A stretch of 55,205 bases of DNA, from the IMG/VR virus record IMGVR_UViG_3300031974_005644, positions 1 through 55,205 of that record; one strand, written 5' to 3'. Source of the stretch: a virus (Duplodnaviria > Caudoviricetes). A program made the position numbers and the translations under genes. Below, one piece after another: positions 4,064 to 36,525 of this stretch (within the stretch, counting starts at the first letter, position 1; each line of letters starts with the position of its first letter). Under the pieces are notes generated by a model. The model was not told the DNA's origin and did not search any database. It worked only from the letters and a program-made list of their open reading frames with translations.

Positions 4064-7000
4064 TCACCTGCCAAAAGCATCGTTCCAAATCCTGATCCCC
4101 GCTCGCACCTCGGCATCTCGCTCAGCCTCCCACTTCGCCTTCGTGGCGTCGTCAGGGGCATCCTCAATATCCCTGCGCGCTTTGCGATCTTCCTTGGCAA
4201 TCCATAGCACCTCATCAATGGCGTCTTCCTGCTTTTTGGTGAACTGGTCTGCATAGGGCTCGTCGCTGTCCTCCATGCTTTTGATAGTCTTCAACGCGGC
4301 ATCGGCCTGGCGGGCAATGTCGCTGAAGCGGCTGTCGTAGAAATACTCCGAACGTTCGTTGACGAAACGGCGAACCACCGGCACGTCGTTCCGATGGGTA
4401 GGCCCGTCACCAGCCAGCACGGTCACCATCCCTTCTACCAGGCGCCATTGCGGCCCTACATAGCCCTTGACCAGCGCCTCGGCGCCAGAAGCGCTCAGTG
4501 GGTCAACATTCCACGCTTCTTTGACCCAGTTCGGCCCGAACCGCGTGCCGCCCATCATCCCGTGCAGTGTTTGCATCAGGCCTGTCAGCGCTTTTTCTTC
4601 ATAGTCGCGGTACGCCACCGGGTCATAGGTGTCGTCACCGAAGCTGCGCCGGTAAATCGTGCTTCCGAAAGAGGTTTCGTTGTTCGCCACATTCAAGAAT
4701 GGCTCAGCCACGCTCGGAATCAGCGTGTCGGTCGGCATGAAACTGGTCATGAACGCGCTCAGCGACACGCCAACGGCCTCTGCCGGGCTCGCATTACCCC
4801 GAACGGCCCGACCCACCATCCGGCCCATGGCGTACGGCACGTTGTAGCCATAGGCAATCGGCCATTTGATAAAGGTGTCCTCATCAATAAACGCAGTCAG
4901 CTCGCGTCCCAGCGACCACTTCCCGGCCGCGTCTCCCAGTGGCTCGCCTTCCTCATCGTCGCCCTCAAGCAAGGACTCCACCAAGCCAGCCACCATCAAA
5001 CCCAGCATCGCGCGGCGAGTCCACTTGCTGCGAGCGGCAGCTTTCAGCATGGCAAAGTTGCCCTGCATGGCGGCGTTGAAGAACACATAGAAAGCACTCG
5101 GCCACTGCAGTTCGCCCTTCTGGTTGAAGTTCACAGTGGTGTCCTTCGCCAGCCGTGCCGATTCCTGCTTGCTCAAGCCGCGGTCACGGGCAGCTTTGTA
5201 GATCGCAAGACGGGTGGTGTTCTCGAAGATCTCGTTGTAACGCTCAAGCATGTTGAAGAAGCCGGAAACGCCCCCCTTCACACCCTGCACTGCAATGTTC
5301 GGAACCCCCTTCCGCTGCTGATCCACCAGCCTCTGGAACTCTGCCTTTATGTCGTCGACACCTGTGAGGCCATAGGCGCCAGTCGTACCGCCTGACTCCA
5401 GAAACTCGCGATACAACGGGCTGCCCTCGATTACCCAGCCCTTATCCTTGCCGCGAACCGCACCAACCAGACCAGCACGCAGATTCTTCATCACATCGAA
5501 GGCAAACCCCTTCGGGTCTTTCATGTCTGCGCCAAAGGCGTTCAGAAAAGCCGTTTGCACGTCACGAACAAAGTTGGGCAAAGCGAACTCGGGGTTGTAC
5601 ATCGTCAACGTCCGACCAAACAGCCGCGTGGCGGCGCCGATGCCCTTCAGCACCCAGCTCAGCTGCTCGCCCGCCATGTTCTTCAACTGCTTGGCCAGCC
5701 GTTTGTTCTGGAACTCCATCACCACCAACGCGCCGTCTACCCGCGCCATGAAGATTTCATCGCGGCGGTAAAGATCATTGATGCTCGGCACGTACTGAAC
5801 ATCGTCTTTGGTCACCATTCGGCCCTTGCCGTCCATCTGCGGCTTGCCAGTTTTAGGGTCAACCACCGGCACCTTCACGGTGCGCGCCATCTTCGGGTAC
5901 TCCGCCGGAGTCATCACTCGCCAGTAGTCACCTGCGGGGCCGCTGATGAGGCCTTCATTGCCGCTGGTTTCCAGAATCAGGTTGTAGACCGCTCGGCCGA
6001 CGCGATTCTTCTCAGCACGAACGAAGGTCTTCTGGGCATCAAGCAATGCGACAGCCAGCGGGTCTTCAGCGCGGGATGCCCGACCAAAGGCCTCACGGAT
6101 CACCGTCGACCGCTGATCGAACCCGTTGCCGGTGCCCTGCCCCTGTTCTTCGGGGTCAACGACGGACTTCAGCGGCACATAGTGCTGATACCCGGTGGTC
6201 AGGTCCTGGTACTGCTGCGCCGAGATCAGCCCAGCCTCGCGCATCAGGTTCAGCTTCTGCCGATTGATCGCCTGCACCACGCGGGACACCTCAGCCAGCG
6301 CGTCACGCTGTTCCTGCGGCAGTGCAGCCACTTCGGCAAGAATCTTCTTCGCCTGCCGGTTGGTCATGCCCGACCCACCATCGGGGAACATGCTGTTCCG
6401 CTCGGCAATGGCCGCGTTGCGCTCCTGAGCGTGCAGCGCATACAGGTAGTCACTGGCCTGCTTGAAGCTCACGCCAGCCTTGTTCATCACCTTGAACAGC
6501 GCCTTGGTCGTGTCCTTCAGATCGTCCAGGCGCGTCTGCGTGCGGCCGTAGAAGGTCTTCTCCAGGCTGCCGGGGTCACGCTCGTCAGGAATCGCAACGC
6601 CCTTGCCCTTCAGGAACTTCACGGCACGCTCGACTTCCGAGAAGCGGTTGATGAACCACGGATACAAGTTGTGGTTAAGCGCCCGCCTGTTGTCGGCGCG
6701 CACTTTGCGGTGCCAAATCCCCCAGCCGCCCCAGTTGGGTGGCAGCAGGGTTGAGATGTCATCCGGGTCGGTGCTGGTTTGATCCTGGCGGCTAAATTTA
6801 ACGTCGGCCCCAGAATCAGAGAACCCGCCATCGGGCGGGTTCTGGGTTACATCCGATTCGCCTTGTCTCGGGCGATCATCTGTCGGATTTCGGCGCTCGC
6901 CTGCTTCATTTCTTGCCGCAACGATTCGATCTCGGACGCCGTCAGCGTCCTGACCTGCTCTTTCGTTGGAGACTTTGGCTCGAGCTTGTTCACTTGTTCC

Positions 7001-10000
7001 GATCCTACCGGCATTGACGGATTCAAGCCATTGCGCGATGCTCTGACTGTCCTCGGGACTTCGTGGCGCGGCCATTGGGGCCGTCAGCTGTGAAGCCTCG
7101 GGGATTTTTTGTGCCTCAATGATGGCGTCACCGTCATACAGCATGTCGCCGTTGACGTTCTCGCGGACCACGTAGCGCACAAACACGGGCTCACCCGAAA
7201 TTCTCGCGCGAACTCCAAAATGGTGGAACGCCGCAGTCGAATCATCGGGCTTAGAGCGAACCGGCTGGCTCCACAAGAGCCTCGCCGCGGGCAGCAACTC
7301 GCCAACGCTTCCGATCACGGCCCGCATGCGCGGGTCGGCGGAATGGCTGCGCATCTTCCGCAGCGCACGATTCACGATCTGCACTTGATTGCCGTCCGCC
7401 GTCTTGACCGACCGTCCCACTACCTGCCGGTAGTCGGCAGCGGCCTCACCTAGTGACGCGGGCGTCTCAACCGATATCGGCGTCATCGAGGTCAGCATCT
7501 TCGCGCGCGTCAGCGAGTCGGGTTCGGCTTGGCGCGCAAACAGCGGCTGCCCTGACATCGCCGCGTCGCGCATCGCCGGGCGCAACTGCCCCTCGGCCGT
7601 GGCCTGCAGCACGTCCGCCACCAGCGTCTTGACGCTTTGAAGGTCGCGCATCGTGCGCTGGGCAAATTGGGACTGCCGCATGTCTTCGCGGCGAAGGCGA
7701 GACATCATCTTCTCGATCCAGAAGCGCAGCCGGTTCATCAACCGCTTGAACGCGTTGGGCTCCATGCGCTGCTTCAGGTCAAACAACACCTTCGGATCCG
7801 ACATGATCGAGCCCATCACGTCGGCGACGAACTCGTTCTCGACCTTCGCGCGGCTCAGGGCGGGTAGCCCGTCGCGCTGGTACACCTTCTCCAACCGCGC
7901 CTCATAGGCCGGGAATGCCCCTTCCTTGGCCATCTCCAGGATGCGGGCCTTCAGAATCGCATGCAGCTCGGCTGCCGGGCCTTCCAGCGAGTGTGTGAAC
8001 TCATGGCCCAGCACATGCCGCAGCGGCTGCTTGGCATCGGCGTTCACAAACAGCACGCCGCCGCTCACATACACACCAGCAGGCGCCCGCGTGTCACTGC
8101 TCTCGAAGAACACCGCCTTGCGGCCCAGCAGGGTCTCCATCGTTTCCGACAGGCCACGCATGGCCCTGGGCGGCTCAACCGCACGCAACGGCACGTCCTG
8201 CCCTGCCTGCCGGGCCAGAATGGCGTTCAGCTTCTCCACCTGGCCGCGATCCCACTCGGGCGCGTCGGGGCGGTTGGATGCGGGGACGGTGCCAGACTGC
8301 AATCGCGAAATGTCGGGATCAGCTGGATCAAAGGTGCCGCGGTTGCCGGTCGCTGACTTCACTTGCTCGGGGCGGAAGGCAACGTAGGTCTCATTGCCCC
8401 AGTGATAACCCTGACCAAAACGCCCCTCGTCAGTAACATTTCGGATTATTACACCGTCGTACCCGGCCGCTTTAGCCTGATCGACGATCTCCGGCACAGA
8501 CTCGTGCCCGTCGTATTCACCTTCTAGGGCTCCGTCCCAGTTACGCCCACCGAAATCCACTTCTAAAGGGTCATGGATGGACAGGTAGACCGGATACACC
8601 CCTGCCTCACCGTCATAGTCTGGGTCGAAGTCGTCGCGCAACTTCGCTTCGGTAGACCGACCTGAATAGGTTTCGGCGTTTTTCTTGGACTCTGTGAAGA
8701 AAAATCCAGCCCTTGCGTTCTGTGTGTTCGAGCCCGCCCGATCCTCATCAAAAACAGTGAAACCTGCATTTGGACTGCCGTGGTACACCACCAACGGCTT
8801 GCCGTCAGCATCAACAACCTTGCTGTCGCCAAACCACCGCTTAAATTCTGCCGTCTGAGTCTGATCTGCGGCCGACTGCCCATCCCGGCTGAACAGCACC
8901 ACGTTGTCGCCGTCCTGCTGCGTTTCGATTGTTTCGAATAGCGCATCAAAGGCCTGAGCCACCGGCGCCACTTCCTCGGGCATCAGGTAGGGGTAGCGGC
9001 CCTTGTCGCGCGTGAAGGCCTCCAGCGCCACCACGTTGGCGAGAAAGTCATTCTGGTAGCCCTTCTCCATCATCTTCGAGATCACGTAGTTCTCGAAGCT
9101 GCGAGCGCCACGCTCAATGATCTGCGACCAGTAGGCCTTCTTGTCGCTGTCCAGCAGCCGAGCGCGCGCAGCCATGGGCGATTCGTTCAGCGCTTCGACC
9201 AGGTCCGCGAAACGCTCTTCCACCTCCGGCCGCACGCCTTGTGGTGCCGACGGGTCGCGCTCCCACTTGTCGTCGTTGAAGTTGTCGGTCTGGTCGCCCA
9301 GTGCCCGGCGCTTGGCCAGAAGTTGCCCGCGCGTCATCGGCGGGAAGAGCCGGCTCCGGTCCTTCCGCACCATCAGCGGTTCGGGCTTGTAGGTGATGAA
9401 ATTCGCCCCCTGGGCACCATCGCCCCCGACTCGCTTGCGAGCAAAGTAGTTGTCCAGCGCGTGGAACCACTCATGCGCCAGCGAGCCAGCGCCCTTGGTC
9501 TTGGTCAGGTTGATGACCAGCGTATCCGGCTCGAAGTGAGCCGCAGCTTTGCCGCCCTTGCCTCGCGAACCCAGCCCAAGGCCCAGCGTGCCGCCCAGCG
9601 ACATCGCACGCGGCGGCACGCCCACGACGTCGGACAAGTCCATCAGCGCGTCGTAGACCTCGTTCAACATGCCCTGCCGGTCTTTCTGGCCTGTGCCCTG
9701 CTGCAGCCAATTGCCAAACTCGACGCCACGGAACCCAAAGGCTTCGGTGAACATCGCCTCGTCAGCATCGCGTCCATTGCGCCGGTCGGCCCCGGTGCGG
9801 GGGCGGTTCTCGCTGCGGCGCACGTCAGACTTGCGCACGTTGTCGCGATCCTTGACGCCCTCCCACTCGGACACCAGCTCGTCGTAGTTCTCGCTGATGA
9901 AGGTGAACGCCTGCTTGGGCGTCTGGAACTCGCGCAGCACGCGCTTTTCCTTGTCGCCCTTCTTGGTGATGAAAACCACCCCGTCACTGCGTCGGGTGTA

Positions 10001-13000
10001 GACGTTGAACTGCATCTTCGGCTTGGCCGGGCCGTCACCAGCCAGCTTCTCGACAACGCGGGGCACTACGCCCTCGACGTCACCAAAGCCCTGAAACCAC
10101 GAACGCTTGCCGTCAATCTCAACCAGTACCGCCGGTTGGCTTTCGCGCTCGCCGTCGACGTAGCTATATGCCTCCGGGGCTTCAACCACGCCACCGATGC
10201 GCGGCCACTGGGAGCGTTCAATCTTCTCCAGCAGGCGAACCTTGGCAAACCAGTTTCCTAGCGTCGGCGTTTCCGCAATCAGCGCGTCAACCTTCTCGCG
10301 GCCAACGCCCTGTACGGCCTTGGCCATGCCGCGCATCTGCTGCACGGTGGCGACCCAGCGCTTCAGCTTGTAGCCCTTGCGGGGCTTGGCGGGGATTTCT
10401 TCGCGGGCGGCCGTCAGCAGCGCGGCAATGAACTTGTCCTCAACCGCGTCAATCTCGGTCTTCGGCCAAATCTTGCTCAGCGGCTGGCTGGCAATGTCTT
10501 CATCCGTCAGCTCACGGCTCAGTGACGGCGCGTCATCCTTGCGGGCGCCGCCCAGCTTCTCGCCGAAATCGTCCAAGCGGTTGGCGGATGGCGAGCTTTC
10601 GAGGCGAGGTGCACTCTCAGGGCCAGGCGGGGCATCCGATTGCGTAGACGGCGGCGAGATACCCGCGCGCTGTTCACCGGAGCCGCTTGCTCCCTCAACA
10701 ACCCGCCCCTCCAGCTCAGCCGTGAACACCCGCCGCGCATCGTCATCAAACGGCACGCCAAAGCGCTCGGCTGTGGCCTGCGGGAACTGGGCAACCGCAT
10801 CGGCAACCGCTTCGCGCGCCTTCGCCTTGCCGAACGGCAACTTCACCCCGGTTTCGCGCTCAAGCGCACGCGCGGCGGCCTGCACGTCGGCACCCTTCAT
10901 CGCGTCAATGCGGGCCTGCACCTGGCTAGTCAGCAATGCGCGAGCCTGTGATACGTCGGACTGGGTGACTTGCGGCGCGGAAGTGGCGCTTTCAGACGCC
11001 GCAGACGTTGCAGCCACGGGCGTTTCGGCTTTGCTCCCCTCGTCCATGCGGGGAGCAAAAATGTCCCCCTGTCCGCGCGCAGTCCCGACGTCTGCCTGCC
11101 GGTCGCTACCAGTCAGCGTGAAGTCGCCGGCCTCACGCTCCGACTGCGCCCGCATCTCGGCTTGTTGGCGCTGCTTCTGCTTCTGGGCCTCGGCCTGGGC
11201 CACGCGCGCTTCATCCTTCTGGCGCGACGCCTCGGTCTGCTGTGCCAAAGAAAAGGCCCCGGTGTCGGGGCCTTGAGTTACTTCGGTTTGGCTGGCGGCG
11301 GGCTCGCCGGTTGCGACTGCTTGGCCGCTGCCTCGCGCATCCGCTTCGCGTCCCGCACCGCTTGCAGCAACCTGATCGGCCTGCCGCGCAGCTTCTGCTC
11401 TTCCATCAATGATCTCCTGAACGGCGCGCATGAAGGCCGCATCATCATTCTCAAACTGTCGGGCCGCCATTTCAACTGCGGCTTCATCTACCTCGTTTGC
11501 CTGCTCGACCAGAGCGTAGTCAATCACGTCCGGCTTGTTGTCGCCGGACAGGTCCCGGCCGGTAAGCGCCAGCGCATCGACTGCGTCAACGCCCAGCTCA
11601 TCCGCTGCATCCTGCGCGGTCATGGCCTCGTCGTTGCGCAGCGCAATCCAGCGGTCACGCGCCTCGATGCTCAGCACCGGCTCGCTCTTCGTGATGGCGT
11701 TGTAAATCAGGTCGCGCGCGGCCTGCACGCCGCCGTCGACATCGTTGAAGTCGGTCTCGCTGATGAAGCCGGCGTTGTAAAGGTCGGTGGCGACATCATC
11801 AATCGTGCGGCCACCCTTGCGGAACAGGCCAGGCGCCATTCGGGCGGCCGTACGTGGTTGCTCGCGAGTGATGTCCGTGCGCTCGCCGATGTCGATGCCG
11901 GTGCCGCGTAGCATCTTCATCAAGTAGCGGCGCTCGTTGGCCTCGATGTCCTCGGCCGTTTCGGGTTTTGGTGCCTTGGAACGAGAAACCCCGCCGGTGG
12001 GCGGGGTCGTCAGTGCAGGCGCTGGCTCGGGCCGGGGCTGTGCCAAAGGTGCAGGCGTTCGCATGCCGGGTGCAGGCATTCCGGCATCAGCACCTCCGTC
12101 TCCGTCGGCACGTCCTTCGTCAGCCGGTACAGCGCGTGCGCCTCCCAGCGTTTGATCACCCGGCTGCCCATTGCTTGCCGCAGCCACTTCGGCAGGACTG
12201 ATTTCGCCACTCGGCGTCTCCTTTTCCAGCAGGGTTTTGATTTCGGCAGTGACCGCGGCGTCCGCATTCTGATCGGCGCGCCACTCGGCAAACTCTTCGG
12301 GCGCCGTGAAGGCACGCTCAACGCCGGGGGCGGTCCAGTACGGCGTACCGTCCTCATCCGTCTGCTGAGTGAGGGTGACGCCTTCCACCACCACTGGCTT
12401 TGCGGGCTCTGCCTTTGGCGCCACCGGCGGTGCGGCCTTCTTCTTGCCGCTGCGAATGTCCATGTACTCGCGCAAGCTCATGCGCGGCTTTGTGGGTTCG
12501 GGCTTCAGGGGCTCGCCTGTGCCGATATTGCCTGCTGCGCCGATGGGACCACCCAGTGCAGCACCCGCAACGGCGCCAGCACCGGCCTGAGCCATCACAC
12601 CACGCATGGAATCACGCTCAGGGTCTGCGCCAGAGTCGATTGCCGCGCGGTTCTGCGCAAAGGCGTCGCCGCCCTCCTGGATGAACTCTTCTCCGGTCTG
12701 TGCGCCGACACCACGGGCGACGGCGCTTGGAACGCTGCGCGCGACCGTTTCAGGGACGATCCCGCGCGTCGCGATCTTTCCGATCTGCGAAGACGCCCCC
12801 GTCAATCGGCCAGCGACAGCGGTGATTCCGGCCGATAGCTGGGCAGCGGTATCCATGGCGCTGGACTTCATCATCCGCCGCGCCTCAACGGCACCGACTT
12901 GCGGCATCAGGCTTGCGAAGCGCGGCGATACTGCCGCCAATTCCTCGTCGGATACGTCGTCAATGGCCGCAGCGGCCTCGTCGGCGCTCATGTTGGCGGC

Positions 13001-14080
13001 GATAGTGGCTTCGGCCCCTGCAACCGCACCCGTTGCCTTAACAGCGGTTCGCTTGGCGGCGATCAGCGCGGCAGCTCGCGGATTAAATCCTGCTCTCACA
13101 TGAAGGTCATACGTCTTCTTGAACAGCGGTGCCGCCGCTGCGCGCGCAAAACCCCCAGCCACGAACATATCTGGGACCGTCTCTGCCACGGTGACTGCCA
13201 ACGCGCGCGGGTTGTTGGTCATGGCGGACGCACCCGCCCAAACCTGATTCACCATATCCAACAGGCTGCCGCTGCCATCGGCGGCCGCATCCATGGCGGC
13301 GCTCACGACCTGCTGCTGCTCTTGGGTTTCCAGCGACAGGTTGCGACTCACTGCGTCCTGAATGGCGCGGCGACCGCGCACATAGGTGTCCTGCAGCGCC
13401 TGCTGATCCTTGATCGGCTTGATCTGCTCAGCCACCCACCCAGCGCCCGGAATGCCCAAGGCGTCGTATGCGCGGAAGCCCCCTCGCACACCTCGGGCAG
13501 CAAGATCGGCGGTGCCCACGGCAAGGTCAGCGGGCAGCATGGCGGCACGCGCGCCCAGCGACATCGCCGCATCAGTCGCCAGATTGCCCGACGCAGGCCG
13601 CTCCCTGTCAGGGGATGCCTTACCGAACGCCCCTCGCAGGACGTCTTCAGATACATCGGGCGCGGCCGGTTCTGGCTGGGCACGGGCAATGGTCTGCGGA
13701 GCGGCAGTGCTCTGGTCGAATCCGGCCGACATCGGGAAGGCCTGGCCGTTCTTGATGACCGCCTGTCGACCCTGAGCGTCGTTCTGGATCTCGCCGGGTT
13801 GCACATCGTCGAGCAAGTCGGCGCGCAGTGGAACCGGCAAGCGCGAACGCGTCGGCGCCTCGGCGTACCCGGCATCGCCCATCAGCTCGACCGCCTTCGG
13901 GTTGCGTTTGTCCTCGGGCCGGTAGCTATCCCAGCGCTTGAGGGCTGTTCCCAGCTTCTCCGGCGGAATCCTCGGTGCCAGCACCTTCTCGAAGTAGTTG
14001 TTGCGCACACGCGCCCGCTCATCTGGCGGCAAGCGCTGAAAACCATCGGACTCAACCAGGCGATCCCATTGAGCAGACAT
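4064..14080 (-). CDS. giant polyvalent virion/ejection protein (LPD5-, LPD1/zincin-, ART-PolyVal-, second zincin-, LPD3- and LPD38-like regions)
   Basis: 3338 aa; motifs DFGEKLGGARKD, FGFRGVEFGNW...AHEWFHALDNY, FKRWFGDSKVVDADGKPLVVYHGS...GYDGVII...EQVKSATGNRGTFD, GHEFTH; last gene of the ejection cluster. Confidence 0.85.
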   Translation of the reverse strand: MSAQWDRLVESDGFQRLPPDERARVRNNYFEKVLAPRIPPEKLGTALKRWDSYRPEDKRNPKAVELMGDAGYAEAPTRSRLPVPLRADLLDDVQPGEIQNDAQGRQAVIKNGQAFPMSAGFDQSTAAPQTIARAQPEPAAPDVSEDVLRGAFGKASPDRERPASGNLATDAAMSLGARAAMLPADLAVGTADLAARGVRGGFRAYDALGIPGAGWVAEQIKPIKDQQALQDTYVRGRRAIQDAVSRNLSLETQEQQQVVSAAMDAAADGSGSLLDMVNQVWAGASAMTNNPRALAVTVAETVPDMFVAGGFARAAAAPLFKKTYDLHVRAGFNPRAAALIAAKRTAVKATGAVAGAEATIAANMSADEAAAAIDDVSDEELAAVSPRFASLMPQVGAVEARRMMKSSAMDTAAQLSAGITAVAGRLTGASSQIGKIATRGIVPETVARSVPSAVARGVGAQTGEEFIQEGGDAFAQNRAAIDSGADPERDSMRGVMAQAGAGAVAGAALGGPIGAAGNIGTGEPLKPEPTKPRMSLREYMDIRSGKKKAAPPVAPKAEPAKPVVVEGVTLTQQTDEDGTPYWTAPGVERAFTAPEEFAEWRADQNADAAVTAEIKTLLEKETPSGEISPAEVAAASNGQPGDQTLGGARAVPADEGRADGDGGADAGMPAPGMRTPAPLAQPRPEPAPALTTPPTGGVSRSKAPKPETAEDIEANERRYLMKMLRGTGIDIGERTDITREQPRTAARMAPGLFRKGGRTIDDVATDLYNAGFISETDFNDVDGGVQAARDLIYNAITKSEPVLSIEARDRWIALRNDEAMTAQDAADELGVDAVDALALTGRDLSGDNKPDVIDYALVEQANEVDEAAVEMAARQFENDDAAFMRAVQEIIDGRAEAARQADQVAASGAGREADARGSGQAVATGEPAASQTEVTQGPDTGAFSLAQQTEASRQKDEARVAQAEAQKQKQRQQAEMRAQSEREAGDFTLTGSDRQADVGTARGQGDIFAPRMDEGSKAETPVAATSAASESATSAPQVTQSDVSQARALLTSQVQARIDAMKGADVQAAARALERETGVKLPFGKAKAREAVADAVAQFPQATAERFGVPFDDDARRVFTAELEGRVVEGASGSGEQRAGISPPSTQSDAPPGPESAPRLESSPSANRLDDFGEKLGGARKDDAPSLSRELTDEDIASQPLSKIWPKTEIDAVEDKFIAALLTAAREEIPAKPRKGYKLKRWVATVQQMRGMAKAVQGVGREKVDALIAETPTLGNWFAKVRLLEKIERSQWPRIGGVVEAPEAYSYVDGERESQPAVLVEIDGKRSWFQGFGDVEGVVPRVVEKLAGDGPAKPKMQFNVYTRRSDGVVFITKKGDKEKRVLREFQTPKQAFTFISENYDELVSEWEGVKDRDNVRKSDVRRSENRPRTGADRRNGRDADEAMFTEAFGFRGVEFGNWLQQGTGQKDRQGMLNEVYDALMDLSDVVGVPPRAMSLGGTLGLGLGSRGKGGKAAAHFEPDTLVINLTKTKGAGSLAHEWFHALDNYFARKRVGGDGAQGANFITYKPEPLMVRKDRSRLFPPMTRGQLLAKRRALGDQTDNFNDDKWERDPSAPQGVRPEVEERFADLVEALNESPMAARARLLDSDKKAYWSQIIERGARSFENYVISKMMEKGYQNDFLANVVALEAFTRDKGRYPYLMPEEVAPVAQAFDALFETIETQQDGDNVVLFSRDGQSAADQTQTAEFKRWFGDSKVVDADGKPLVVYHGSPNAGFTVFDEDRAGSNTQNARAGFFFTESKKNAETYSGRSTEAKLRDDFDPDYDGEAGVYPVYLSIHDPLEVDFGGRNWDGALEGEYDGHESVPEIVDQAKAAGYDGVIIRNVTDEGRFGQGYHWGNETYVAFRPEQVKSATGNRGTFDPADPDISRLQSGTVPASNRPDAPEWDRGQVEKLNAILARQAGQDVPLRAVEPPRAMRGLSETMETLLGRKAVFFESSDTRAPAGVYVSGGVLFVNADAKQPLRHVLGHEFTHSLEGPAAELHAILKARILEMAKEGAFPAYEARLEKVYQRDGLPALSRAKVENEFVADVMGSIMSDPKVLFDLKQRMEPNAFKRLMNRLRFWIEKMMSRLRREDMRQSQFAQRTMRDLQSVKTLVADVLQATAEGQLRPAMRDAAMSGQPLFARQAEPDSLTRAKMLTSMTPISVETPASLGEAAADYRQVVGRSVKTADGNQVQIVNRALRKMRSHSADPRMRAVIGSVGELLPAARLLWSQPVRSKPDDSTAAFHHFGVRARISGEPVFVRYVVRENVNGDMLYDGDAIIEAQKIPEASQLTAPMAAPRSPEDSQSIAQWLESVNAGRIGTSEQARAKVSNERAGQDADGVRDRIVAARNEAGERRNPTDDRPRQGESDVTQNPPDGGFSDSGADVKFSRQDQTSTDPDDISTLLPPNWGGWGIWHRKVRADNRRALNHNLYPWFINRFSEVERAVKFLKGKGVAIPDERDPGSLEKTFYGRTQTRLDDLKDTTKALFKVMNKAGVSFKQASDYLYALHAQERNAAIAERNSMFPDGGSGMTNRQAKKILAEVAALPQEQRDALAEVSRVVQAINRQKLNLMREAGLISAQQYQDLTTGYQHYVPLKSVVDPEEQGQGTGNGFDQRSTVIREAFGRASRAEDPLAVALLDAQKTFVRAEKNRVGRAVYNLILETSGNEGLISGPAGDYWRVMTPAEYPKMARTVKVPVVDPKTGKPQMDGKGRMVTKDDVQYVPSINDLYRRDEIFMARVDGALVVMEFQNKRLAKQLKNMAGEQLSWVLKGIGAATRLFGRTLTMYNPEFALPNFVRDVQTAFLNAFGADMKDPKGFAFDVMKNLRAGLVGAVRGKDKGWVIEGSPLYREFLESGGTTGAYGLTGVDDIKAEFQRLVDQQRKGVPNIAVQGVKGGVSGFFNMLERYNEIFENTTRLAIYKAARDRGLSKQESARLAKDTTVNFNQKGELQWPSAFYVFFNAAMQGNFAMLKAAARSKWTRRAMLGLMVAGLVESLLEGDDEEGEPLGDAAGKWSLGRELTAFIDEDTFIKWPIAYGYNVPYAMGRMVGRAVRGNASPAEAVGVSLSAFMTSFMPTDTLIPSVAEPFLNVANNETSFGSTIYRRSFGDDTYDPVAYRDYEEKALTGLMQTLHGMMGGTRFGPNWVKEAWNVDPLSASGAEALVKGYVGPQWRLVEGMVTVLAGDGPTHRNDVPVVRRFVNERSEYFYDSRFSDIARQADAALKTIKSMEDSDEPYADQFTKKQEDAIDEVLWIAKEDRKARRDIEDAPDDATKAKWEAERDAEVRAGIRIWNDAFGR

Positions 14081-30121: not shown

Positions 30122-32149
30122 TTACCAGAGGTATTCGGGTTGACGCTCTGGTGCAGCGGCGGGCGGGATCACCGCGTTCGTCGCCACGGTTTGTTCAATC
30201 TCGACCGTCTCGGCCTTGGTCTTGATGGTTTCGGCCGCCGTCTGAGCGGCCTTGACCTCTTCGTGCTGGGCCTCGGCCTGCGCCTTGGCGGCTTGGCCCG
30301 ATTCCTTCGCGGCCTTGGCCTCGGCGAGCGCGATCTGCAGCTGCTCCATCATCTCGGCGATCTCGGCCTGCTTCTGGGCGGACTGCTGCTCTTCCGGCGT
30401 CATGTCGTCCGGTTCCTGCATGCCCATCTGCTTGCGAATCATCTTCGCCATGTCGTGCTTGTGCGGCATTTCCGACATTTCGATCAGGATCGGCAGCGCC
30501 GCGCTACGCAGGCGTTCGTCGCCAATCGTCTGGATCGAGCGCGCCACTTCCTGGAACTGCTGCATGCGGTGCGTCGGCGTGCTCGGCACGTCATCGAGCG
30601 TCACCTGCAACTGCACCTGCTTGATGTTGTTCTTGATGAACTCATAGCCGTCCGGGTGCTGTTCCCGCACGTTCACCGGCACCACGATGCGCTTGCCGCC
30701 TTCCTTCTTCGCCTTGACCTCACCGGGCTTGCTGCCGATGTCTTCGATGATCAGCGCCAGCAATTGGCGACCCATTGCGGTACGGGCATCGCGGGCCATG
30801 CCAGACGGGCGGCTCTGGCTGTTCATGCCCTGCTCGACCATCGTGTTCATGGCCACGCCGCTGGTGATGCCCGACTCACGCTGGCCACTGAGACTGCGCG
30901 GCACGCCGGCAAGCTGCGGCATCAGGCTCATCATGTCGCTGTAGATGCCCATCTGCTCACGCGAGAGCTGGAAGTCGGCCTTGATCTCCAACTTGCTGCC
31001 GGGCTTGCGCGCCGGGTTCAGCTCGATCATCCCGTCGGGCCGGCTCATTTCTTCGCGCAGCATGTCGGGGTCGGTCACGGCGTCGGCGTCGTAGATCGCC
31101 TGCTTCTGGTTCAGGCCCCACATGGCGCGTGCCAGTCGGGTGTTCACCTGGTCCTGCAGGCTCATGATCACGCGGATCAGGCCATACGGAGACCCGGTGC
31201 GGCCCTCGCGATCATAGACCACGGGGATATACGGAAACTCGTCATGCGGGTATGGGCTGGGGCCATCCACCAGACAGATGTCACCCACGTACACCGCGCG
31301 GTTCATCTGCTTCACCAACGTCGGCTTCGGCTCAATCAGGCCCGACTCATAGGCCCGAACGTGCATCGGGTCCTTCTGGTCGAACTTCACCCAGCGACCA
31401 TTCGGCAGCAGCACCGCATAGCCTGCGGTCTCGGTGCGGTAATAGATCTCTTCCAGCGCCAACAGGTCACGGCCGGCGCCCCAAAGGTCGCGGCTGACCA
31501 TGGTCATGTCGTTCCAGGCGCCGTCACGCTGGTACTGCTGCGGCTCGTACCAACCGGTCGACTGATCGCCAGGGCCTGCCATGCGCAGCGCTGCCACCTT
31601 CTTCGGGTAGCGCTTCTCGATCTGCGAGCGCTGGAAGAACTTCACGCGGCGCAGATACTCGGCATCGCCGACGATGTTGGGCGACTTCGCACGCGGGTCC
31701 CACCACATCTCGCGCCAGTCCACCAGGCCAGTGCGGTAGGGGTAATCCAGCAGACTTTCGCTGCGACCGACCTCAATCCAGCCGATGCCGGCGCGGGACT
31801 GCGACAGCGTGGCATCCAGCCATGTGCGATCTGCCTCGGTGCGCGACTCAGCTTCTTTCAGCCGCAGGCTCAGCACCTGCGCCAGCTCTTCGTGGTCGTC
31901 TGAGGCCTCGGGCCGCACGATCCAGTCCGACTGGTTGCGCTCATGCAGGCCAACGATGGTCTGCACCAGGTCGCGGCACAGGTTCGCCACGGTGAGCGGC
32001 ATTCCGCGCTCTTCCATCTTGCGGGCCGTCTCGGCGTCAAACTGGTTGCCGTCGTAGTAATCCTCGGCCACGGCAGAGTCGTAGCGCCACGAGCTGCCGA
32101 AGGTGGCGTCGTTGCGCCACATCTGCAGTTGTTCGGGGCTCAGGGCCAC
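30122..32149 (-). CDS. portal protein
   Basis: 675 aa; DYYDGNQ, AGIGWIEV, SPYPHDEFPYIP, PYGLIR motifs; C-terminal coiled-coil barrel. Confidence 0.9.
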   Translation of the reverse strand: MALSPEQLQMWRNDATFGSSWRYDSAVAEDYYDGNQFDAETARKMEERGMPLTVANLCRDLVQTIVGLHERNQSDWIVRPEASDDHEELAQVLSLRLKEAESRTEADRTWLDATLSQSRAGIGWIEVGRSESLLDYPYRTGLVDWREMWWDPRAKSPNIVGDAEYLRRVKFFQRSQIEKRYPKKVAALRMAGPGDQSTGWYEPQQYQRDGAWNDMTMVSRDLWGAGRDLLALEEIYYRTETAGYAVLLPNGRWVKFDQKDPMHVRAYESGLIEPKPTLVKQMNRAVYVGDICLVDGPSPYPHDEFPYIPVVYDREGRTGSPYGLIRVIMSLQDQVNTRLARAMWGLNQKQAIYDADAVTDPDMLREEMSRPDGMIELNPARKPGSKLEIKADFQLSREQMGIYSDMMSLMPQLAGVPRSLSGQRESGITSGVAMNTMVEQGMNSQSRPSGMARDARTAMGRQLLALIIEDIGSKPGEVKAKKEGGKRIVVPVNVREQHPDGYEFIKNNIKQVQLQVTLDDVPSTPTHRMQQFQEVARSIQTIGDERLRSAALPILIEMSEMPHKHDMAKMIRKQMGMQEPDDMTPEEQQSAQKQAEIAEMMEQLQIALAEAKAAKESGQAAKAQAEAQHEEVKAAQTAAETIKTKAETVEIEQTVATNAVIPPAAAPERQPEYLW

Positions 32150-32151
32150 GC

Positions 32152-32439
32152 TTACACCCGGTTCCCGAAGGCGAGGTTGACGATGGTCTCGGTGTCCGCG
32201 AACACCGCCACATGGGTTGCATTGCCCGGCACAGCGACCACGTCCGATGTTCCGGACAGCACCGCAAAGTCACCGGCAGCAGCGGTCACGGTTGAATCGC
32301 CGAACTTCAGGTACACCACAGACGCACCCACCACAGGCTCATCCACCACAGACGCACGCAGCGTGTTGGCGCTGGCGCCAATGGCCACAGCTTGGCTGGC
32401 GGCAGCAGCAACGTCCGCCGTTCTCAAAACAGTCAGCAT
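32152..32439 (-). CDS. small beta-rich hypothetical (probable virion) protein
   Basis: Coupled ORF between terL and portal; start re-placed at ATG 32439 after GGAGAG. Confidence 0.55.
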   Translation of the reverse strand: MLTVLRTADVAAAASQAVAIGASANTLRASVVDEPVVGASVVYLKFGDSTVTAAAGDFAVLSGTSDVVAVPGNATHVAVFADTETIVNLAFGNRV

Positions 32440-32440
32440 T

Positions 32441-33217
32441 TCAGGCTCTCCAATTGGGCGCCGGCCGGTGGCGGTCGCGGGTTTGCGGCTTGCAGATGGC
32501 ATAGCGCCGCATCACAAAGGCGTATCGGCTGGCGGCCATCAGGTCGTCAGCCTCCTTCACGATCTTTCCGTCTTTGCGGTGGTACAGCCGAAACTCGTCC
32601 CACCAGTCCGACAGGTGAGCGGCGACCTTGAACGTGCCGATCTGCATGGCATCAAGCATTTCCGAGATGCCGGCCTCAACCGACACCCGCGACACGTTCG
32701 TTTCGCCTTCGCTGCCCGCCTCGGGAAGCTGGGCAATCTCGTGCAGCATGTTCAGACCCTGGCCCCGGTACTGCTCAGCCAGTTGAATGCCGGTGCCCTT
32801 CTCGGTCTGCAGGCCGTCAGCCGGCCATGCAACGGGGATCCACACGCCACGCGCCTTGATCGCCGCGGCGTGAGTGACCGGCGTCTTCTGCGCGACCCGA
32901 TAGGTGTCGTACAGATACATCGTGTCGGTGTCTCGATCCCAGGCGAACCAAGCTGCAGCGGTCGGGTGATCCCACCCGAAGTCCATGCCGCAGATACGTG
33001 GCCAATGGGCCGGAAACGGAAACAGGTTGAACTTGATCGACTCTTCGTCGACCGGGAATATCGCGCCGCTGCCCAGTGCCGGAATGCCTTGAGACCGGGC
33101 CTTGCGTAAGTGCGCTGGTGTCGAGGCCAGCAGTTCCGCCTTGGTCTTGGCGTCAAGATGAGGCACATTGTCCCAGCCCGCCATCACCAGGTACTTCGAA
33201 GGTGAAACTTCAGGCAT
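32441..33217 (-). CDS. terL: terminase large subunit, C-terminal piece (end of ATPase/lid + RNase H-like nuclease)
   Basis: GWDNVPHL...[39 protein letters not shown] at 33217 overlaps the HNH stop. Confidence 0.88.
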
Positions 33218-33764
33218 AACTAATGCCCTTGGCCAAATTCTCGCGGGCACTTATCACTTGCAAGTTGTGTGCGACGTGCAGGCCGCACACGTTGATTCCC
33301 TTGAGGGGAACGATGTGGTCAACGTGCATCACCAACTCCTGCGGGTCATCGCACGCCACACAGGCCGCTAGTTTGGCCTGCAGGTCCATCGCTTCGCGGT
33401 AAATGGCGCGGATCGCGGCGTCGTTCTCCCTGGCGCCTGATCTCATCAGCGCTTTGCGCATGCGTTGCGCCTTGGCCTTGTTAGAGCGGTGCGCAGGGTC
33501 TAGTTGCCGCCTTGAGTTGTAGGAGGCAAGGTGTGACTTGTTCGCGCGCTTCCATGCCAGGGATGTGGCGCGGTCGATGTCTCCCTTGATCGCGTAGCGA
33601 GCCATCCGGCGGGCGCGCGCGCATTCCGTGCAACGGGACTCGTAGCGTGTGCTGGCTTTGCCTTGACGCGTGGTGTACGGGTAACTGTAGAAATGATCCA
33701 GAGACAGGAGACGCCCGCAGGTGATGCAAGGTCGCTCGCCGGCGGTGATGACGGTGTAGGCCAT
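33210..33764 (-). CDS. HNH homing endonuclease inserted in terL
   Basis: CxxC...CxxC zinc finger; HVDHIVPL...[22 protein letters not shown]. Confidence 0.9.
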
Positions 33765-33769
33765 GTCGT

Positions 33770-34516
33770 TCAGTTGCCTTTCGGCATCCCGTTGGGCAGG
33801 AAGCTCTTCACCGTCTCTGTCACGCCTTCAAGCGGCGTGAACGTGATGGCGACCATGCCGCCGGTTGTTGCGGTACGGATCAGGCACTCGCCGTAAATGT
33901 CGATGGGCGGCTCTTCGTCGAGCCAGATCACGTCCTGCTCGGTGCCCTCAAAAGCCCCGCGGCCCTGCTGGTAGCTCTTGAGGCCCAGTCGCGACCATCC
34001 GCCGCTGACGTGCTCCACCATCACCGTGTCGAGAAGGTCCTGAACGCCTTGCTTCCAGTTCAAATCGCCGATGGCGTCGCCATAAATCAGCCCGGTACCG
34101 CTGACAGACTTCGGCGCGCCGCCCATCACCGAACCGACCAGCTTGGCTTGCACGATGTCGCGCGTCGTTTCGTTGGTCTTGCCAGCAGCCCATGCGCTGA
34201 TCGGGCGAGTGAACCGGCGGCCAGGCCACCAGTCGGGATACTGTCCCGTCAAATGCAGCGCTATTTCGTAGCCGCCTGCGCCTTCCGATTTACCGATGCG
34301 ATTGGCCGCCAAGAAACACCGCTCGCGATACGTCGCGCCGGCCGCGAAGAACTCCAGGTGTTTGGGGTACAACTCACGCCGCAACGGCCCTTCGTCCGGG
34401 AAGAACGAATCAATCTTCCGACGACTCTTCCGACGCTCCGCTTCCTCCAGCAACTCCAATAGCTGTAGCCGCTCCGAGCGCGGCAACTGCTCCCAGTTTG
34501 GCGGCAAGTCGGGCAT
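33770..34516 (-). CDS. terL: terminase large subunit, N-terminal piece (ATPase core, P22 gp2-like)
   Basis: Walker A AANRIGKS, Walker B VIWLDEEP, coupling motif TFTP. Confidence 0.9.
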
Positions 34517-35030
34517 TCAGATCCTCGTCCGAGATGTTGCGTACATCGACGTTGGCGTCGACCGAGACTTTGTCGCCGTACTCTTTCGAGGCGATCTTCG
34601 CGGCTCGCCAGCGGTAGTGATGAGCGAGCTCCTTGGCCTTCTTCAACTCGAACTCATCCTTGGCGAGATCGATCCTCGATTCCGCCTTCTCGTCCCAAAG
34701 TTTCGCCGTCGCAGTACGGGCCTCGCGCACGCGCGCGGAACGAACCGGATCTGCGTCAATCCACACCAGCAATCGAGTCAGCGAAGCGCCTGCCTCTGCG
34801 GCAATGTCCGTGAGGCTCTTACGGTCGATGATGGCCTCGCAAAGACGCGAGATGCCGTAGTTGTCCATCGCCTCTACAGTCGCGCCGCGCTTGGTCTTGC
34901 ACGTCTTCGGCTTAGCCGCCGCCTTTGCCTTCGGCTGGCTGGACTTCGGCACCGGCGTCTTCTTGGGCGCCGCCTTCTTCCCCGCTGGCTTGGTGGGCGC
35001 CTTCGTCGCGCCGCGCGCCTTCGTGCTCAC
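34410..35030 (-). CDS. terS: terminase small subunit (Sf6/P22-like) with a basic N-terminal tail
   Basis: HTH region and RWRAAKIASKEYGDK motif; position upstream of terL. Confidence 0.8.
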   Translation of the reverse strand: MSTKARGATKAPTKPAGKKAAPKKTPVPKSSQPKAKAAAKPKTCKTKRGATVEAMDNYGISRLCEAIIDRKSLTDIAAEAGASLTRLLVWIDADPVRSARVREARTATAKLWDEKAESRIDLAKDEFELKKAKELAHHYRWRAAKIASKEYGDKVSVDANVDVRNISDEDLNARLAAKLGAVAALGAATAIGVAGGSGASEESSED

Positions 35031-35290
35031 TTCTCGTAATCCACCGGCGGTTCGCTGCTGTCGAGCGCTTGCCGCTTGTTCTTCCGGCGTTCCTCTCCTG
35101 ATCGGCGGTCTCTCCGGTCACCGTGCTCGTTGCGCCATGACCAGAACTTGTGAGCCAGCAGCACCAACAGGTAAATCACCGTCAGCACCGCAATCAGCTC
35201 CTGAGACGTCGCCCCGCTCACCATTGCCGCCACGGGCGGCGTCAGCTTGGCGGTCTCCATTGGCAGGTCTGCGAGGATCTGTGTCGACAT
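35027..35290 (-). CDS. putative holin
   Basis: Small protein with a hydrophobic helix (LIAVLTVIYLLVLLA) and a highly charged C-tail; first late CDS after the RNA region. Confidence 0.55.
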   Translation of the reverse strand: MSTQILADLPMETAKLTPPVAAMVSGATSQELIAVLTVIYLLVLLAHKFWSWRNEHGDRRDRRSGEERRKNKRQALDSSEPPVDYEK

Positions 35291-35299
35291 GCGCTCTCC

Positions 35300-35718
35300 A
35301 TCCGCCCGCGCCTGGCGCTGGCTCTCTGCGTGAATTGACGCCCGATAACGGGGGCGAACCGGCCCATCACCCTCAACGATTCAGCCCCGGAGTTGTTCAC
35401 TAAGGGCTATGCGGGTCGGGGGCTGCCGGGTTACTCGCCACGTCCGGCTTGGCGGGGGTGAATAGATGCCCCGCATACACGGGGCCTCCCTCGCTATCGG
35501 CTATGCGATGCTGGACGGGGAGAAGGGTGAAGTGGTTGCCGGTTACAGCGTCCGGCGCGCTTGCTGCGTTGCAGCGGCTGGAAGCGCTGGTGGTCATCTG
35601 CGGGTTACTGGTCCCGCGACCTGATGCCACTCAGGTCAGTTCATGCCCTTCGGTCGGCTGGCGAGCCGCTTTCGTTTGAGGGACCGGCCCCGTTAGCCTG
35701 GAACGGGGCAACCGCATA
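35300..35718 (-). ncRNA. candidate structured RNA with three GG-AC-loop-GT-AA-CC hairpins
   Basis: No convincing ORF; dense inverted repeats; motif copies at 35425-35448, 35538-35556 and 35600-35617. Confidence 0.5.
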
Positions 35719-35719
35719 T

Positions 35720-35760
35720 TGGTAGCGGCGGGTCGAGTCGAACGACCTATATTTGCCGCG
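35720..35760 (-). tRNA. 3' half of an interrupted tRNA(CAT) (Met or Ile2)
   Basis: GGTCG-TTCGACT-CGACC T-arm, then CGCCGCT-A-CCA. Confidence 0.85.
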
Positions 35761-36190
35761 CCTCAAGGTACTGAATGATGTTTTCGACTTTACGCTTCAC
35801 GGCAGGCAGGCTATCTCCAAGACGCCCAATCAAAGTATTGCAATGCCTGCACAAAATCCCGCGCGGTTTTTGGCTTTCGTGGCAGTGATCAAAAACCAGA
35901 TCTTTCTTGCTTAAGCAAACCTGGCATTCATCAATGCCTAAACCGAGAAGTGCGCCTACGCTCAGCACATCTAGTTTGTAGCGGGCTGCAATGACCTTAT
36001 CTTGGTTCCGCGCTTCCCATGATCTAACAGCATCTTTGTGCCGCTCTCGGTTCGCCGGATACCAGACCTCTCTAACGTATTTGTTGTGGCATGCCTTACA
36101 TTTTGATGATCTACCAGTTTTACTGGCGGACTTCTTTGAAAATGATGCCTCTGGCAGATGCTCTCCGCACGAAATACATTCGTAGATCAT
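35747..36190 (-). CDS. endonuclease VII-family (His-Me finger) endonuclease inserted in the tRNA
   Basis: CxxC...CxxC N-terminal finger; CQVC...DHCH...RGILCRHCNTLIG; AGGA SD then ATG at 36190; AT-rich relative to the genome. Confidence 0.88.
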   Translation of the reverse strand: MIYECISCGEHLPEASFSKKSASKTGRSSKCKACHNKYVREVWYPANRERHKDAVRSWEARNQDKVIAARYKLDVLSVGALLGLGIDECQVCLSKKDLVFDHCHESQKPRGILCRHCNTLIGRLGDSLPAVKRKVENIIQYLEARQI

Positions 36191-36200
36191 GGGCGATCCT

Positions 36201-36239
36201 GTTATGAGCCACGCGGAATGCCGGTTTCCTACAGCCGCT
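36201..36239 (-). tRNA. 5' half of an interrupted tRNA(CAT) (Met or Ile2)
   Basis: AGCGGCTG-TA-GGAA-ACCGGCA-TTCC-G-CGTGG-CTCATAA-C: acceptor strand complementary to the 3' half, D-arm, and anticodon loop with CAT. Confidence 0.8.
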
Positions 36240-36244
36240 TCAAA

Positions 36245-36271
36245 CAAAAAACCCGGCGCGGAGGCCGGGCT
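36245..36271 (-). terminator. intrinsic terminator in the late leader
   Basis: GCCCGGC-CTCCGC-GCCGGGT followed by TTTTT. Confidence 0.75.
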
Positions 36272-36274
36272 CAT

Positions 36275-36525
36275 GAATAGCTGAAAACGGGCCGGAGATG
36301 ATCCCGGCTTGCATGCCTGCCACGGTGTAGAACACGACGCCTACACTTTTCGCCGCCGCCCGGTCCTGCATCATCGCTTGCTGGCGATGGCCGTTGCTTG
36401 CCGGATTATCGCTGCACATCATCACTGCGCACTTCCGCTTTCAAGCGATGCCGTCCGGGGCCTCGCGCTACGCACTTGGCTGGTGCCGCATCCTTCAAAG
36501 CTCTCGGCTGTCCGAGATTTCTAAC
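36275..36525 (-). ncRNA. candidate structured RNA between two terminators
   Basis: Multiple hairpins and no convincing ORF. Confidence 0.4.

Follow-up and report, generated by a model that had tools for sequence, protein, structure and literature searches.

In Aeromonas phage Aeh1, mobE reportedly divides the gene nrdA, whose ribonucleotide reductase still functions as a genes-in-pieces enzyme, as Friedrich et al. are said to have described in 2007, and mobA of phage T4 was reportedly treated together with genes 39 and 60 by Bonocora et al. in 2011. According to passages of a preprint (bioRxiv 10.1101/2022.08.31.505936), the HNH homing endonuclease MobA separates the T4 topoisomerase genes 39 and 60, and a bypass in gene 60 protects against MobA. 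The gene for the large terminase subunit, terL, is interrupted by an HNH-bearing group I intron in Pectobacterium phage CB7, where splicing was shown by reverse transcription PCR (excerpts of PMC7344957), and in Vibrio phage ICP1, where the intron also splices (excerpts of PMC10448857). A further layout, the fractured gene, consists of gene halves with split inteins and a free-standing endonuclease gene between them, according to parts of Dassa et al. 2009 (PMC2677866). Our study concerns a terL gene in two pieces, terL-N and terL-C, with an HNH endonuclease gene between them, in the IMG/VR provirus record IMGVR_UViG_3300031974_005644; the window is the whole stretch of 55,205 nucleotides (nt), to which all coordinates without a contig name refer. 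We consider it likely that this P22/Sf6-like prophage has a genes-in-pieces TerL made as two chains, together with a free-standing HNH homing endonuclease at the junction, whose target would be the DNA encoding AGWDDVPHL. In the full-text literature, supplementary files not covered, no large terminase was found that consists of two chains with the cut inside its ATPase domain, and the phrase 'split terminase' was absent from the full texts searched.

All three genes lie on the minus strand. terL-N (33770-34516; 248 amino acids, aa) encodes the ATPase core (Terminase_6N; phrog_31467, 2.9e-87), the HNH open reading frame (ORF; 33210-33764, 184 aa) is a probable free-standing endonuclease gene (phrog_1035 'endonuclease VII', 3.6e-18), and terL-C (32441-33217, 258 aa) begins with the last ATPase-sheet strand and the lid segment (residues 1-47) and goes on to encode an RNase H-like nuclease domain (Terminase_6N plus Terminase_6C). 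The terL-N stop is the TGA at 33772-33770, followed after 5 bases (ACGAC) by the HNH ATG at 33764; at the other end of the insert, the HNH TGA (33212-33210) and the terL-C ATG at 33217 overlap within TATGCCTGA (33210-33218, minus strand), a translational-coupling junction. A sequence-only reading of this DNA had reported a two-piece terL with an HNH gene between the pieces, and its positions held when the ORFs and the sequence were checked. terL-N and terL-C share one frame (34516-33217 = 1299 = 3 x 433), the HNH gene is in a different one, and stops inside the insert close the terL-N frame. With 552 nt and in-frame stops between the pieces, TerL is not encoded here as a single polypeptide. 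The two products sum to 506 aa, and a six-frame profile scan showed that the record carries a single terL.

The break passes through the ATPase domain. In Pfam searches, residues 67-242 of terL-N matched profile positions 1-152 of 215 of Terminase_6N (1.1e-12), and residues 77-236 of terL-C matched Terminase_6C (PF17289; 1e-18). A six-frame scan of the record with PF03237 (Terminase_6N) located profile positions 1-153 in terL-N and 160-214 in terL-C, at 33038-33202, so that the ATPase model is divided between the two ORFs. The motifs of terL-N comprise Walker A (GKS, residues 75-77), Walker B (LDEE, 199-202) and motif III (TFTP, 225-228). Residues 48-245 of terL-C match the nuclease domain of P22 gp2 (PDB 4dkw, 9.4e-44) and, because this match begins at residue 48, the first 47 residues are still part of the ATPase; a PDB sequence search with terL-N gave no match at E<=0.01. 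Alignment to uninterrupted TerL proteins puts the cut in a variable loop between FLPxG and LVMAGWDDVPHL, and two such proteins, EBPR podovirus 1 gp39 and that of Chlorobiaceae phage CV-1-33, align through the break with no residues missing. Both the division of Terminase_6N and this alignment agree with the position proposed earlier, inside the ATPase domain, between motif III (TFTP) and the GWDxxPHL segment.

The window is one of many split loci. When 134 related loci were fetched and classified by the state of terL, the gene was continuous in 68, split in the same loop in 45 and incomplete in 15, and in the other 6 the terL-N frame runs off the contig. The host gene is thus continuous in relatives and cut at one point, where the endonuclease sits. 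In a tree of 99 non-redundant terL-N regions (identical rows and rows of <190 aligned residues were dropped), 40 rows are split, most of them without HNH or any insert. The window belongs to a clade of 31 rows, 28 of them split (Shimodaira–Hasegawa-like approximate likelihood ratio test, SH-aLRT, 94), and its sisters in the tree, L015 and L018, are split without HNH. The split/continuous label changes at least 11 times on the tree, with 3 changes forced by well-supported branches. Near-length homologues of terL-N number 3574, and the best 120 of them all measure 228-286 aa, at 65-99% identity. In the phage collection, every one of the 410-411 matches has <60% identity, and the top ones listed are annotated as single genes.

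How the two pieces meet varies among these relatives. In the closest ones the terL-N and terL-C ORFs overlap as xTGCCTGA, the same as the HNH/terL-C junction of the window, and this overlap joins terL-N directly to terL-C without HNH in L014, L015, L016, L018, L021, L036 and L092. Junctions of other lineages read ATGA, GTGA, TAGTG or TGAGATG, and relatives without any insert still have terL as two ORFs in different frames. Some junctions carry 0.1-2 kb of other genes, in the form of single small ORFs, gene sets of 1-2 kb or an EndoVII-type nuclease, and in one contig (L039 and L145 together) terL-N and HNH-terL-C lie ~5.5 kb apart. The varied junctions, the cargo and the 5.5-kb separation point to two separately translated chains and argue against splicing or frameshifting as a general solution. 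A frameshift fusing terL-N to terL-C in the insert-less relatives was considered and judged unlikely: xTGCCTGA would need a +1 shift without possible re-pairing, the terL-N stop lies at varying distance from the terL-C start, junction types vary by lineage, and such a fusion is inapplicable to the window.

In relatives, the terL-N/terL-C junction serves as a cargo site, and unrelated ORFs of 1-2 kb in all occupy it at L038:3244-5288 (including a 445-aa ORF), L026:5721-7081, L073:3595-4660 and L098:4778-5834. At L040:5717-6079 a 120-aa EndoVII-type nuclease ORF lies at the terL junction, and the sister locus L070 is continuous (97*); comparison of the two indicates a recent, independent split at the same loop. 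The nuclease there is of another family than the window HNH, with which the L040 ORF has only the motif region in common (E 0.001). A contig from a Cyclobacteriaceae metagenome-assembled genome has terL-N and terL-C in the same frame, parted only by TAG and then ATG (L102:1785-1800), which could be a site of readthrough, recoding or reinitiation.

For two chains to act as one motor they would have to assemble, and this was approached by predicting the complex of terL-N and terL-C, each with its own alignment, in three runs and beside three controls. The model reached an interface score (ipSAE) of 0.80, and the best of the 3 controls 0.00; the score mark used was reached by 58/80 solved complexes and 2/110 mismatched pairs. 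At least 84% of the contacts are shared among the three runs, and the partner has a predicted local distance difference test (pLDDT) of at least 79. In the model, terL-C residues 3-21 lie against terL-N residues 62-76 and 227-241, and terL-C residues 8-13 (KYLVMA) pair with terL-N residues 65-69, the strand leading into the Walker A loop; as modelled, therefore, the cut runs through the ATPase sheet itself. TerL-N would bring Walker A, Walker B and motif III, that is, the ATPase core, to which TerL-C would add the last sheet strand along with the lid segment and the nuclease domain. With the first strand of terL-C placed beside the Walker A strand, the model suggests strand complementation at this place as the way in which the chains reassemble. 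Because the same cut is found in many related phages, the two-chain terminase most likely works.

It could be objected that this prophage is decaying and that its split terL is dead and yields no functional terminase, since the record is a metagenome provirus and some relatives have further frame breaks in terL-C. We regard this as unlikely. Both pieces are intact and keep their catalytic motifs: residues G75, K76, D200, E201, E202 and T227 are invariant in the terL-N of 35 split relatives, and terL-C D79, the first nuclease Asp, is invariant in 34. The same cut in 40/99 non-redundant relatives, IMG/VR viral contigs included, with the catalytic motifs kept, means that the split is not peculiar to one decayed copy. 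Compared with near-identical relatives in sequencing runs X5 and X7, the listed differences (the counts cover 40 of 62) are 20 synonymous and 7 non-synonymous in terL-N and 6 synonymous and 1 non-synonymous in terL-C, or 26 against 8 together. The rest of the virion module is intact; the record encodes an intact major head protein, portal, internal virion protein, tail fibre and replication genes, and CheckV estimated it to be complete (completeness 100). The stretch is also present in 20 public runs of 10 studies, all of them marine or aquatic metagenomes plus one coded organism, with no RNA run among those listed.

The same runs bear on whether the layout could be an assembly artefact. Contigs of runs from other studies bridge both terL junctions, the terL-N/HNH junction in X4 record 5 and X5 record 10 and the HNH/terL-C junction in X5 record 8 and X7 record 15, and X3 and X4 match the window sequence with zero differences. 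As independent assemblies span both junctions, misassembly, which the sequence-only reading had named as a possible source of error, does not account for the split. No joint that skips the HNH gene was seen in the four runs compared, in which contigs can show presence only, not absence.

The HNH ORF carries a start and a stop codon of its own and is part neither of an intron nor of an intein. Its product combines an N-terminal, zinc-ribbon-like CxxC...CxxC part with a C-terminal HVDH...N...N motif, and residues H147, V148, D149, H150, N167 and N176 are invariant in 52 aligned sequences of the family. In a large protein collection, 66 clusters matched at E<=0.001, of which 53 (P0121-P0173) are 39-99% identical, and many relatives carry the HNH superfamily profiles PF01844 or PF14279. 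IMG/VR was scanned with the family alignment and the best 80 loci were kept. In all 18 loci with a full-length relative at >=37% identity, the HNH gene is directly upstream of terL-C; terL-N is upstream in 12 of these, and in 6 none lies within the available DNA. The remaining 62 of the best 80 loci have more distant or partial HNH matches and no terL match to the queries used. The window HNH therefore belongs to a family that lives at the exact terL junction, its stop overlapping the terL-C start.

Two observations are indirect signs that this gene may be mobile. HNH identity is incongruent with TerL identity (L136: HNH 56%, TerL 43/41%; L140: HNH 51%, TerL 74/62%) and, since the one does not track the other, movement between terminase lineages is suggested. 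In runs X5 and X7 the covered part of the HNH interior shows 0 differences over ~465 bases, and the terL flanks differ by 2.5-4%; an identical HNH in diverged flanks fits recent spread with co-conversion.

A candidate target for the enzyme lies just inside terL-C. The consensus WDDVPH occurs in 0/18 distinct HNH-bearing alleles versus 54/107 HNH-less alleles (Fisher p = 1.4e-5, relatedness not corrected), and WDDAPH in 18 more of the 107. Among the HNH-bearing alleles, 12 are substituted at this site, 5 have a frame break there and 1 could not be resolved. The window is of the substituted kind, with AGWDNVPHL at terL-C codons 13-21 (33155-33181, minus strand), WDN taking the place of the consensus WDD in what we propose as the recognition or cleavage region of the HNH enzyme. 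The enzyme would target the conserved AGWDDVPHL-coding DNA ~40 bases into the terL-C of HNH-less alleles, and the HNH-bearing alleles would be those altered at the target; the WDN of the window is presumably such an altered, immune form.

Frame breaks at this site were found in six contigs (L136, L138 = L005, L143, L144, L146 and L218), all next to an HNH-type gene. In each, terL-C starts normally and reads ...MAGW(D/S/N), followed by a stop and 1-5 further bases; after this stop-bearing insertion of 4-8 bases behind AGW(D/S/N) the coding sequence resumes in another frame with (D)DVPHL. The breaks are at L136:1500-1560, L138:2535-2590, L143:2155-2215, L144:980-1050, L146:1895-1965 and L218:3780-3870 (minus strand). 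Matching codons flank the break in 5/6 (TCC..TCC, GAC..GAC, GAC..GAT twice and AAC..AAC). In L136, L144 and L218 the new frame offers no ATG, GTG or TTG start codon from its last stop up to DVPHL; in L138 and L146 an overlapping GTG could start an N-terminally altered product. A scan of IMG/VR for the pattern GAY-TAG-N-GAY-GAY returned 3 contigs, 1 of them new. These breaks are candidates for a short hop or a +1 shift of the ribosome over the stop; alternatively, the genes concerned may be dead. Short forward hops are reportedly described by Weiss et al. in 1987. Short non-coding gaps of 7-10 bases in terminase genes of Streptomyces phages have been proposed as bypass sites, according to excerpts of PMC10732093.

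A different role for the HNH gene would be that of a working terminase accessory, like HK97 gp74, and not of a selfish element. Kala et al. reportedly showed in 2014 that HNH genes beside terminase genes can be packaging factors, with HK97 gp74 stimulating terminase cleavage. The constant place of the family beside terL-C (18/18 full-length relatives) would suit such a role, and HNH packaging factors are alluded to in passages of the CB7 paper (PMC7344957), yet we hold it to be quite improbable. Most split relatives, L015 and L018 among them, lack the HNH gene, so that it is not present throughout as a factor of the HK97 gp74 type would be, and TerL-C keeps a nuclease domain of its own. The module is moreover of P22/Sf6 type, a type known to package by headful, not at cos sites. 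Finally, the incongruence between HNH and TerL identity and the change at the target-like site fit a homing enzyme.

The HNH ORF could also sit in a self-splicing group I-like intron, a single TerL being made from spliced mRNA. Splicing HNH-bearing terL introns are documented in parts of the CB7 and ICP1 papers (PMC7344957 and PMC10448857), the window terL-N and terL-C are in phase, and ATGCC is found at both junctions; we nevertheless consider an intron very unlikely. No Rfam family matched at E<=10 on either strand of 31500-36500 with permissive filters, and the non-coding flanks of the HNH ORF amount to 5 nt upstream and 0 nt downstream, in line with the rejection of an intron in the sequence-only reading. 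Insert-less relatives still have two ORFs in different frames, and the junctions of other relatives carry 1-5 kb of protein genes. At the repeated ATGCC, one 5' U site was checked by hand, the only join checked, and it gives no in-frame join. Post-translational joining by a split intein, as in the fractured-gene layout of gene half, HNH and gene half that the window shares, can be dismissed as scarcely credible, as had already been argued, because terL-N ends 5-10 residues past FLPNG and terL-C begins in the same loop, without an extra stretch of ~100 aa or ~35 aa, the alignment of both pieces to uninterrupted TerL leaves no residues to spare, and Pfam detects no Hint/intein domain.

With these alternatives set aside, the question turns to how the two-piece terL with its HNH gene arose. 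Many HNH family members begin MPE(I/V)SxSKY..., the first residues of terL-C, and their ends overlap the next terL-C start. An upstream copy of the terL-C start, present in L143, L144 and L147, extends to ...MAG or ...VQA and so ends immediately ahead of the AGWDD Trp codon. The ATG of the upstream copy overlaps the stop of the preceding ORF in L146, L147 and L149, and the short first-copy ORF of L144 is placed likewise; hence the HNH cassette of these four loci clearly entered an already split terL. In the window, the terL-N tail ATGCCGAAAGGCAACTGA (MPKGN*; 33770-33787, minus strand), in phase with terL-N, probably represents a degenerate copy, placed upstream, of the start of terL-C (ATGCCTGAAG...). 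Comparable tails in phase with a start remnant are NGIPEVT* in L140 and GGRLPE* in L040, and continuous relatives carry loops such as GGKMPES (L047). The in-phase tails and the loops of this type make a continuous ancestor possible for the window lineage, and the ancestral continuous junction peptide that had been proposed is plausible, given that terL-N and terL-C are in phase and given the MPKGN tail, the L140 tail and the L047 loop. The same proposal had the HNH gene split terL: its position between the pieces stands, and its part as maker of the cut is not settled, as the cassette of several relatives entered a terL that was already split. The split may have preceded the HNH gene or followed it, and the evidence is compatible with either order.

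Several points weigh against the reading of a two-chain TerL with a homing endonuclease at its junction. The closest terL-N relatives, L015 and L018, are split without HNH, so the gene may be a late arrival and not the cause. The WDD association is uncorrected for phylogeny, the window HNH has no Pfam match at E<=0.01, and the HNH tracts without differences were seen in contigs from metagenomes, where strains can be merged. Solved structures exist for full-length terminases of this family, and the passing score of the complex model may reflect likeness to these; the model speaks for the geometry, not for binding. That the chains are separate is read from the DNA sequence. Weighed against the conservation of the split and of the catalytic residues, and against the fixed linkage of HNH and terL-C, these points leave the genes-in-pieces TerL as our preferred explanation.

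A more far-reaching proposal is offered tentatively. The HNH gene, the duplicated terL-C start and the altered WDD may together form a mobile terL cassette that follows the logic of MobA and gene 60. Such a cassette would home into AGWDDVPHL-coding DNA and leave behind a functional motor of two chains, with the ATPase sheet completed in trans, and in some relatives it would protect itself by a stop-bearing insertion of 4-8 bases that ribosomes would hop or shift over. If the frame breaks of the relatives are indeed read by hopping, they would be new test cases of natural programmed bypassing.

Around terL, the packaging module is otherwise ordinary, as shown by the P22-type portal gene downstream of terL-C (30122-32149, minus strand, 675 aa; PF16510 P22_portal, 1.8e-88). 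The small terminase subunit gene terS, of Sf6/P22 type, lies upstream (34410-35030, minus strand, 206 aa; Pfam PF20901 Sf6_terminase, 2.5e-9; phrog_1482, 2.3e-9), and at its 3' end it overlaps the beginning of terL-N. Upstream of terS lies a second free-standing nuclease ORF (35747-36274, minus strand, 175 aa; Endonuclease_7 PF02945, 3.9e-12; phrog_2633, 1.6e-24). Together with the HNH gene inside terL, this ORF brackets the packaging module; the two nuclease genes are not paralogues by BLASTP (best E-value 0.036). Between terL-C and the portal gene, a 116-aa ORF (32152-32502, minus strand) overlaps the last 62 bases of terL-C; gp38 of EBPR podovirus 1, a hypothetical gene, is similar to it in size and place. 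The virion module also contains a single ORF of 3338 aa (4064-14080, minus strand), which may encode a giant internal or ejection protein.

The split has consequences for the annotation of such phages and for work on the motor. terL-N is filed under 'unknown function' (phrog_31467), and automated annotation would count phages of this kind among those without a complete terL. Work on large terminases treats them as single-chain motors, and a widespread natural form cut inside the ATPase fold would be a ready-made motor system, in which the two chains could be mixed, labelled or mutated separately in order to learn how the half with the lid and the nuclease communicates with the ATPase core.

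Among known terminases, gp2 of P22 and gp2 of Sf6 are of the same family as the window TerL (Terminase_6N plus Terminase_6C, with the nuclease domain match to 4dkw), but are single polypeptides, whereas the window TerL is divided over two ORFs. The terL introns of CB7, coliphage rV5 and ICP1 likewise interrupt terL with an HNH gene; these are splicing ribozymes, however, and the window has neither a ribozyme match nor a non-coding flank. The fractured genes resemble the window in having two gene halves with an endonuclease gene between them and differ in their intein halves. The likeness to Aeh1 nrdA/mobE drawn in the sequence-only reading is apt, as in both a free-standing HNH-type endonuclease gene lies between the halves of an enzyme gene, with neither intron nor intein, and the halves must therefore assemble. 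The terL split differs from it in spanning a large clade, mostly without the endonuclease, and terminase activity would follow here by inference.

Another close parallel is T4 39/mobA/60, in which a free-standing HNH gene also splits an essential enzyme inside a catalytic domain and the element carries a copy of host sequence beside the cut, to which the duplicated MPE..SKY start of terL-C corresponds here. In both systems the endonuclease has been lost in many lineages and the split stays, other nuclease families occur at the same site (here in L040), and a short frame interruption is seen at the presumed target, in our case in some of the terL relatives. The host gene here is a large terminase, not a topoisomerase, and the window HNH, of 184 aa, is of another family; the window has a substitution (WDN) only and no bypass, and the interruptions of its relatives are of 4-8 bases, not 50. 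Cleavage of terL, homing and recoding are proposed here from sequence; if they take place, terL would be a second large example, besides the T4 topoisomerase, of an essential gene that a homing endonuclease has reshaped and from which it has often disappeared later.

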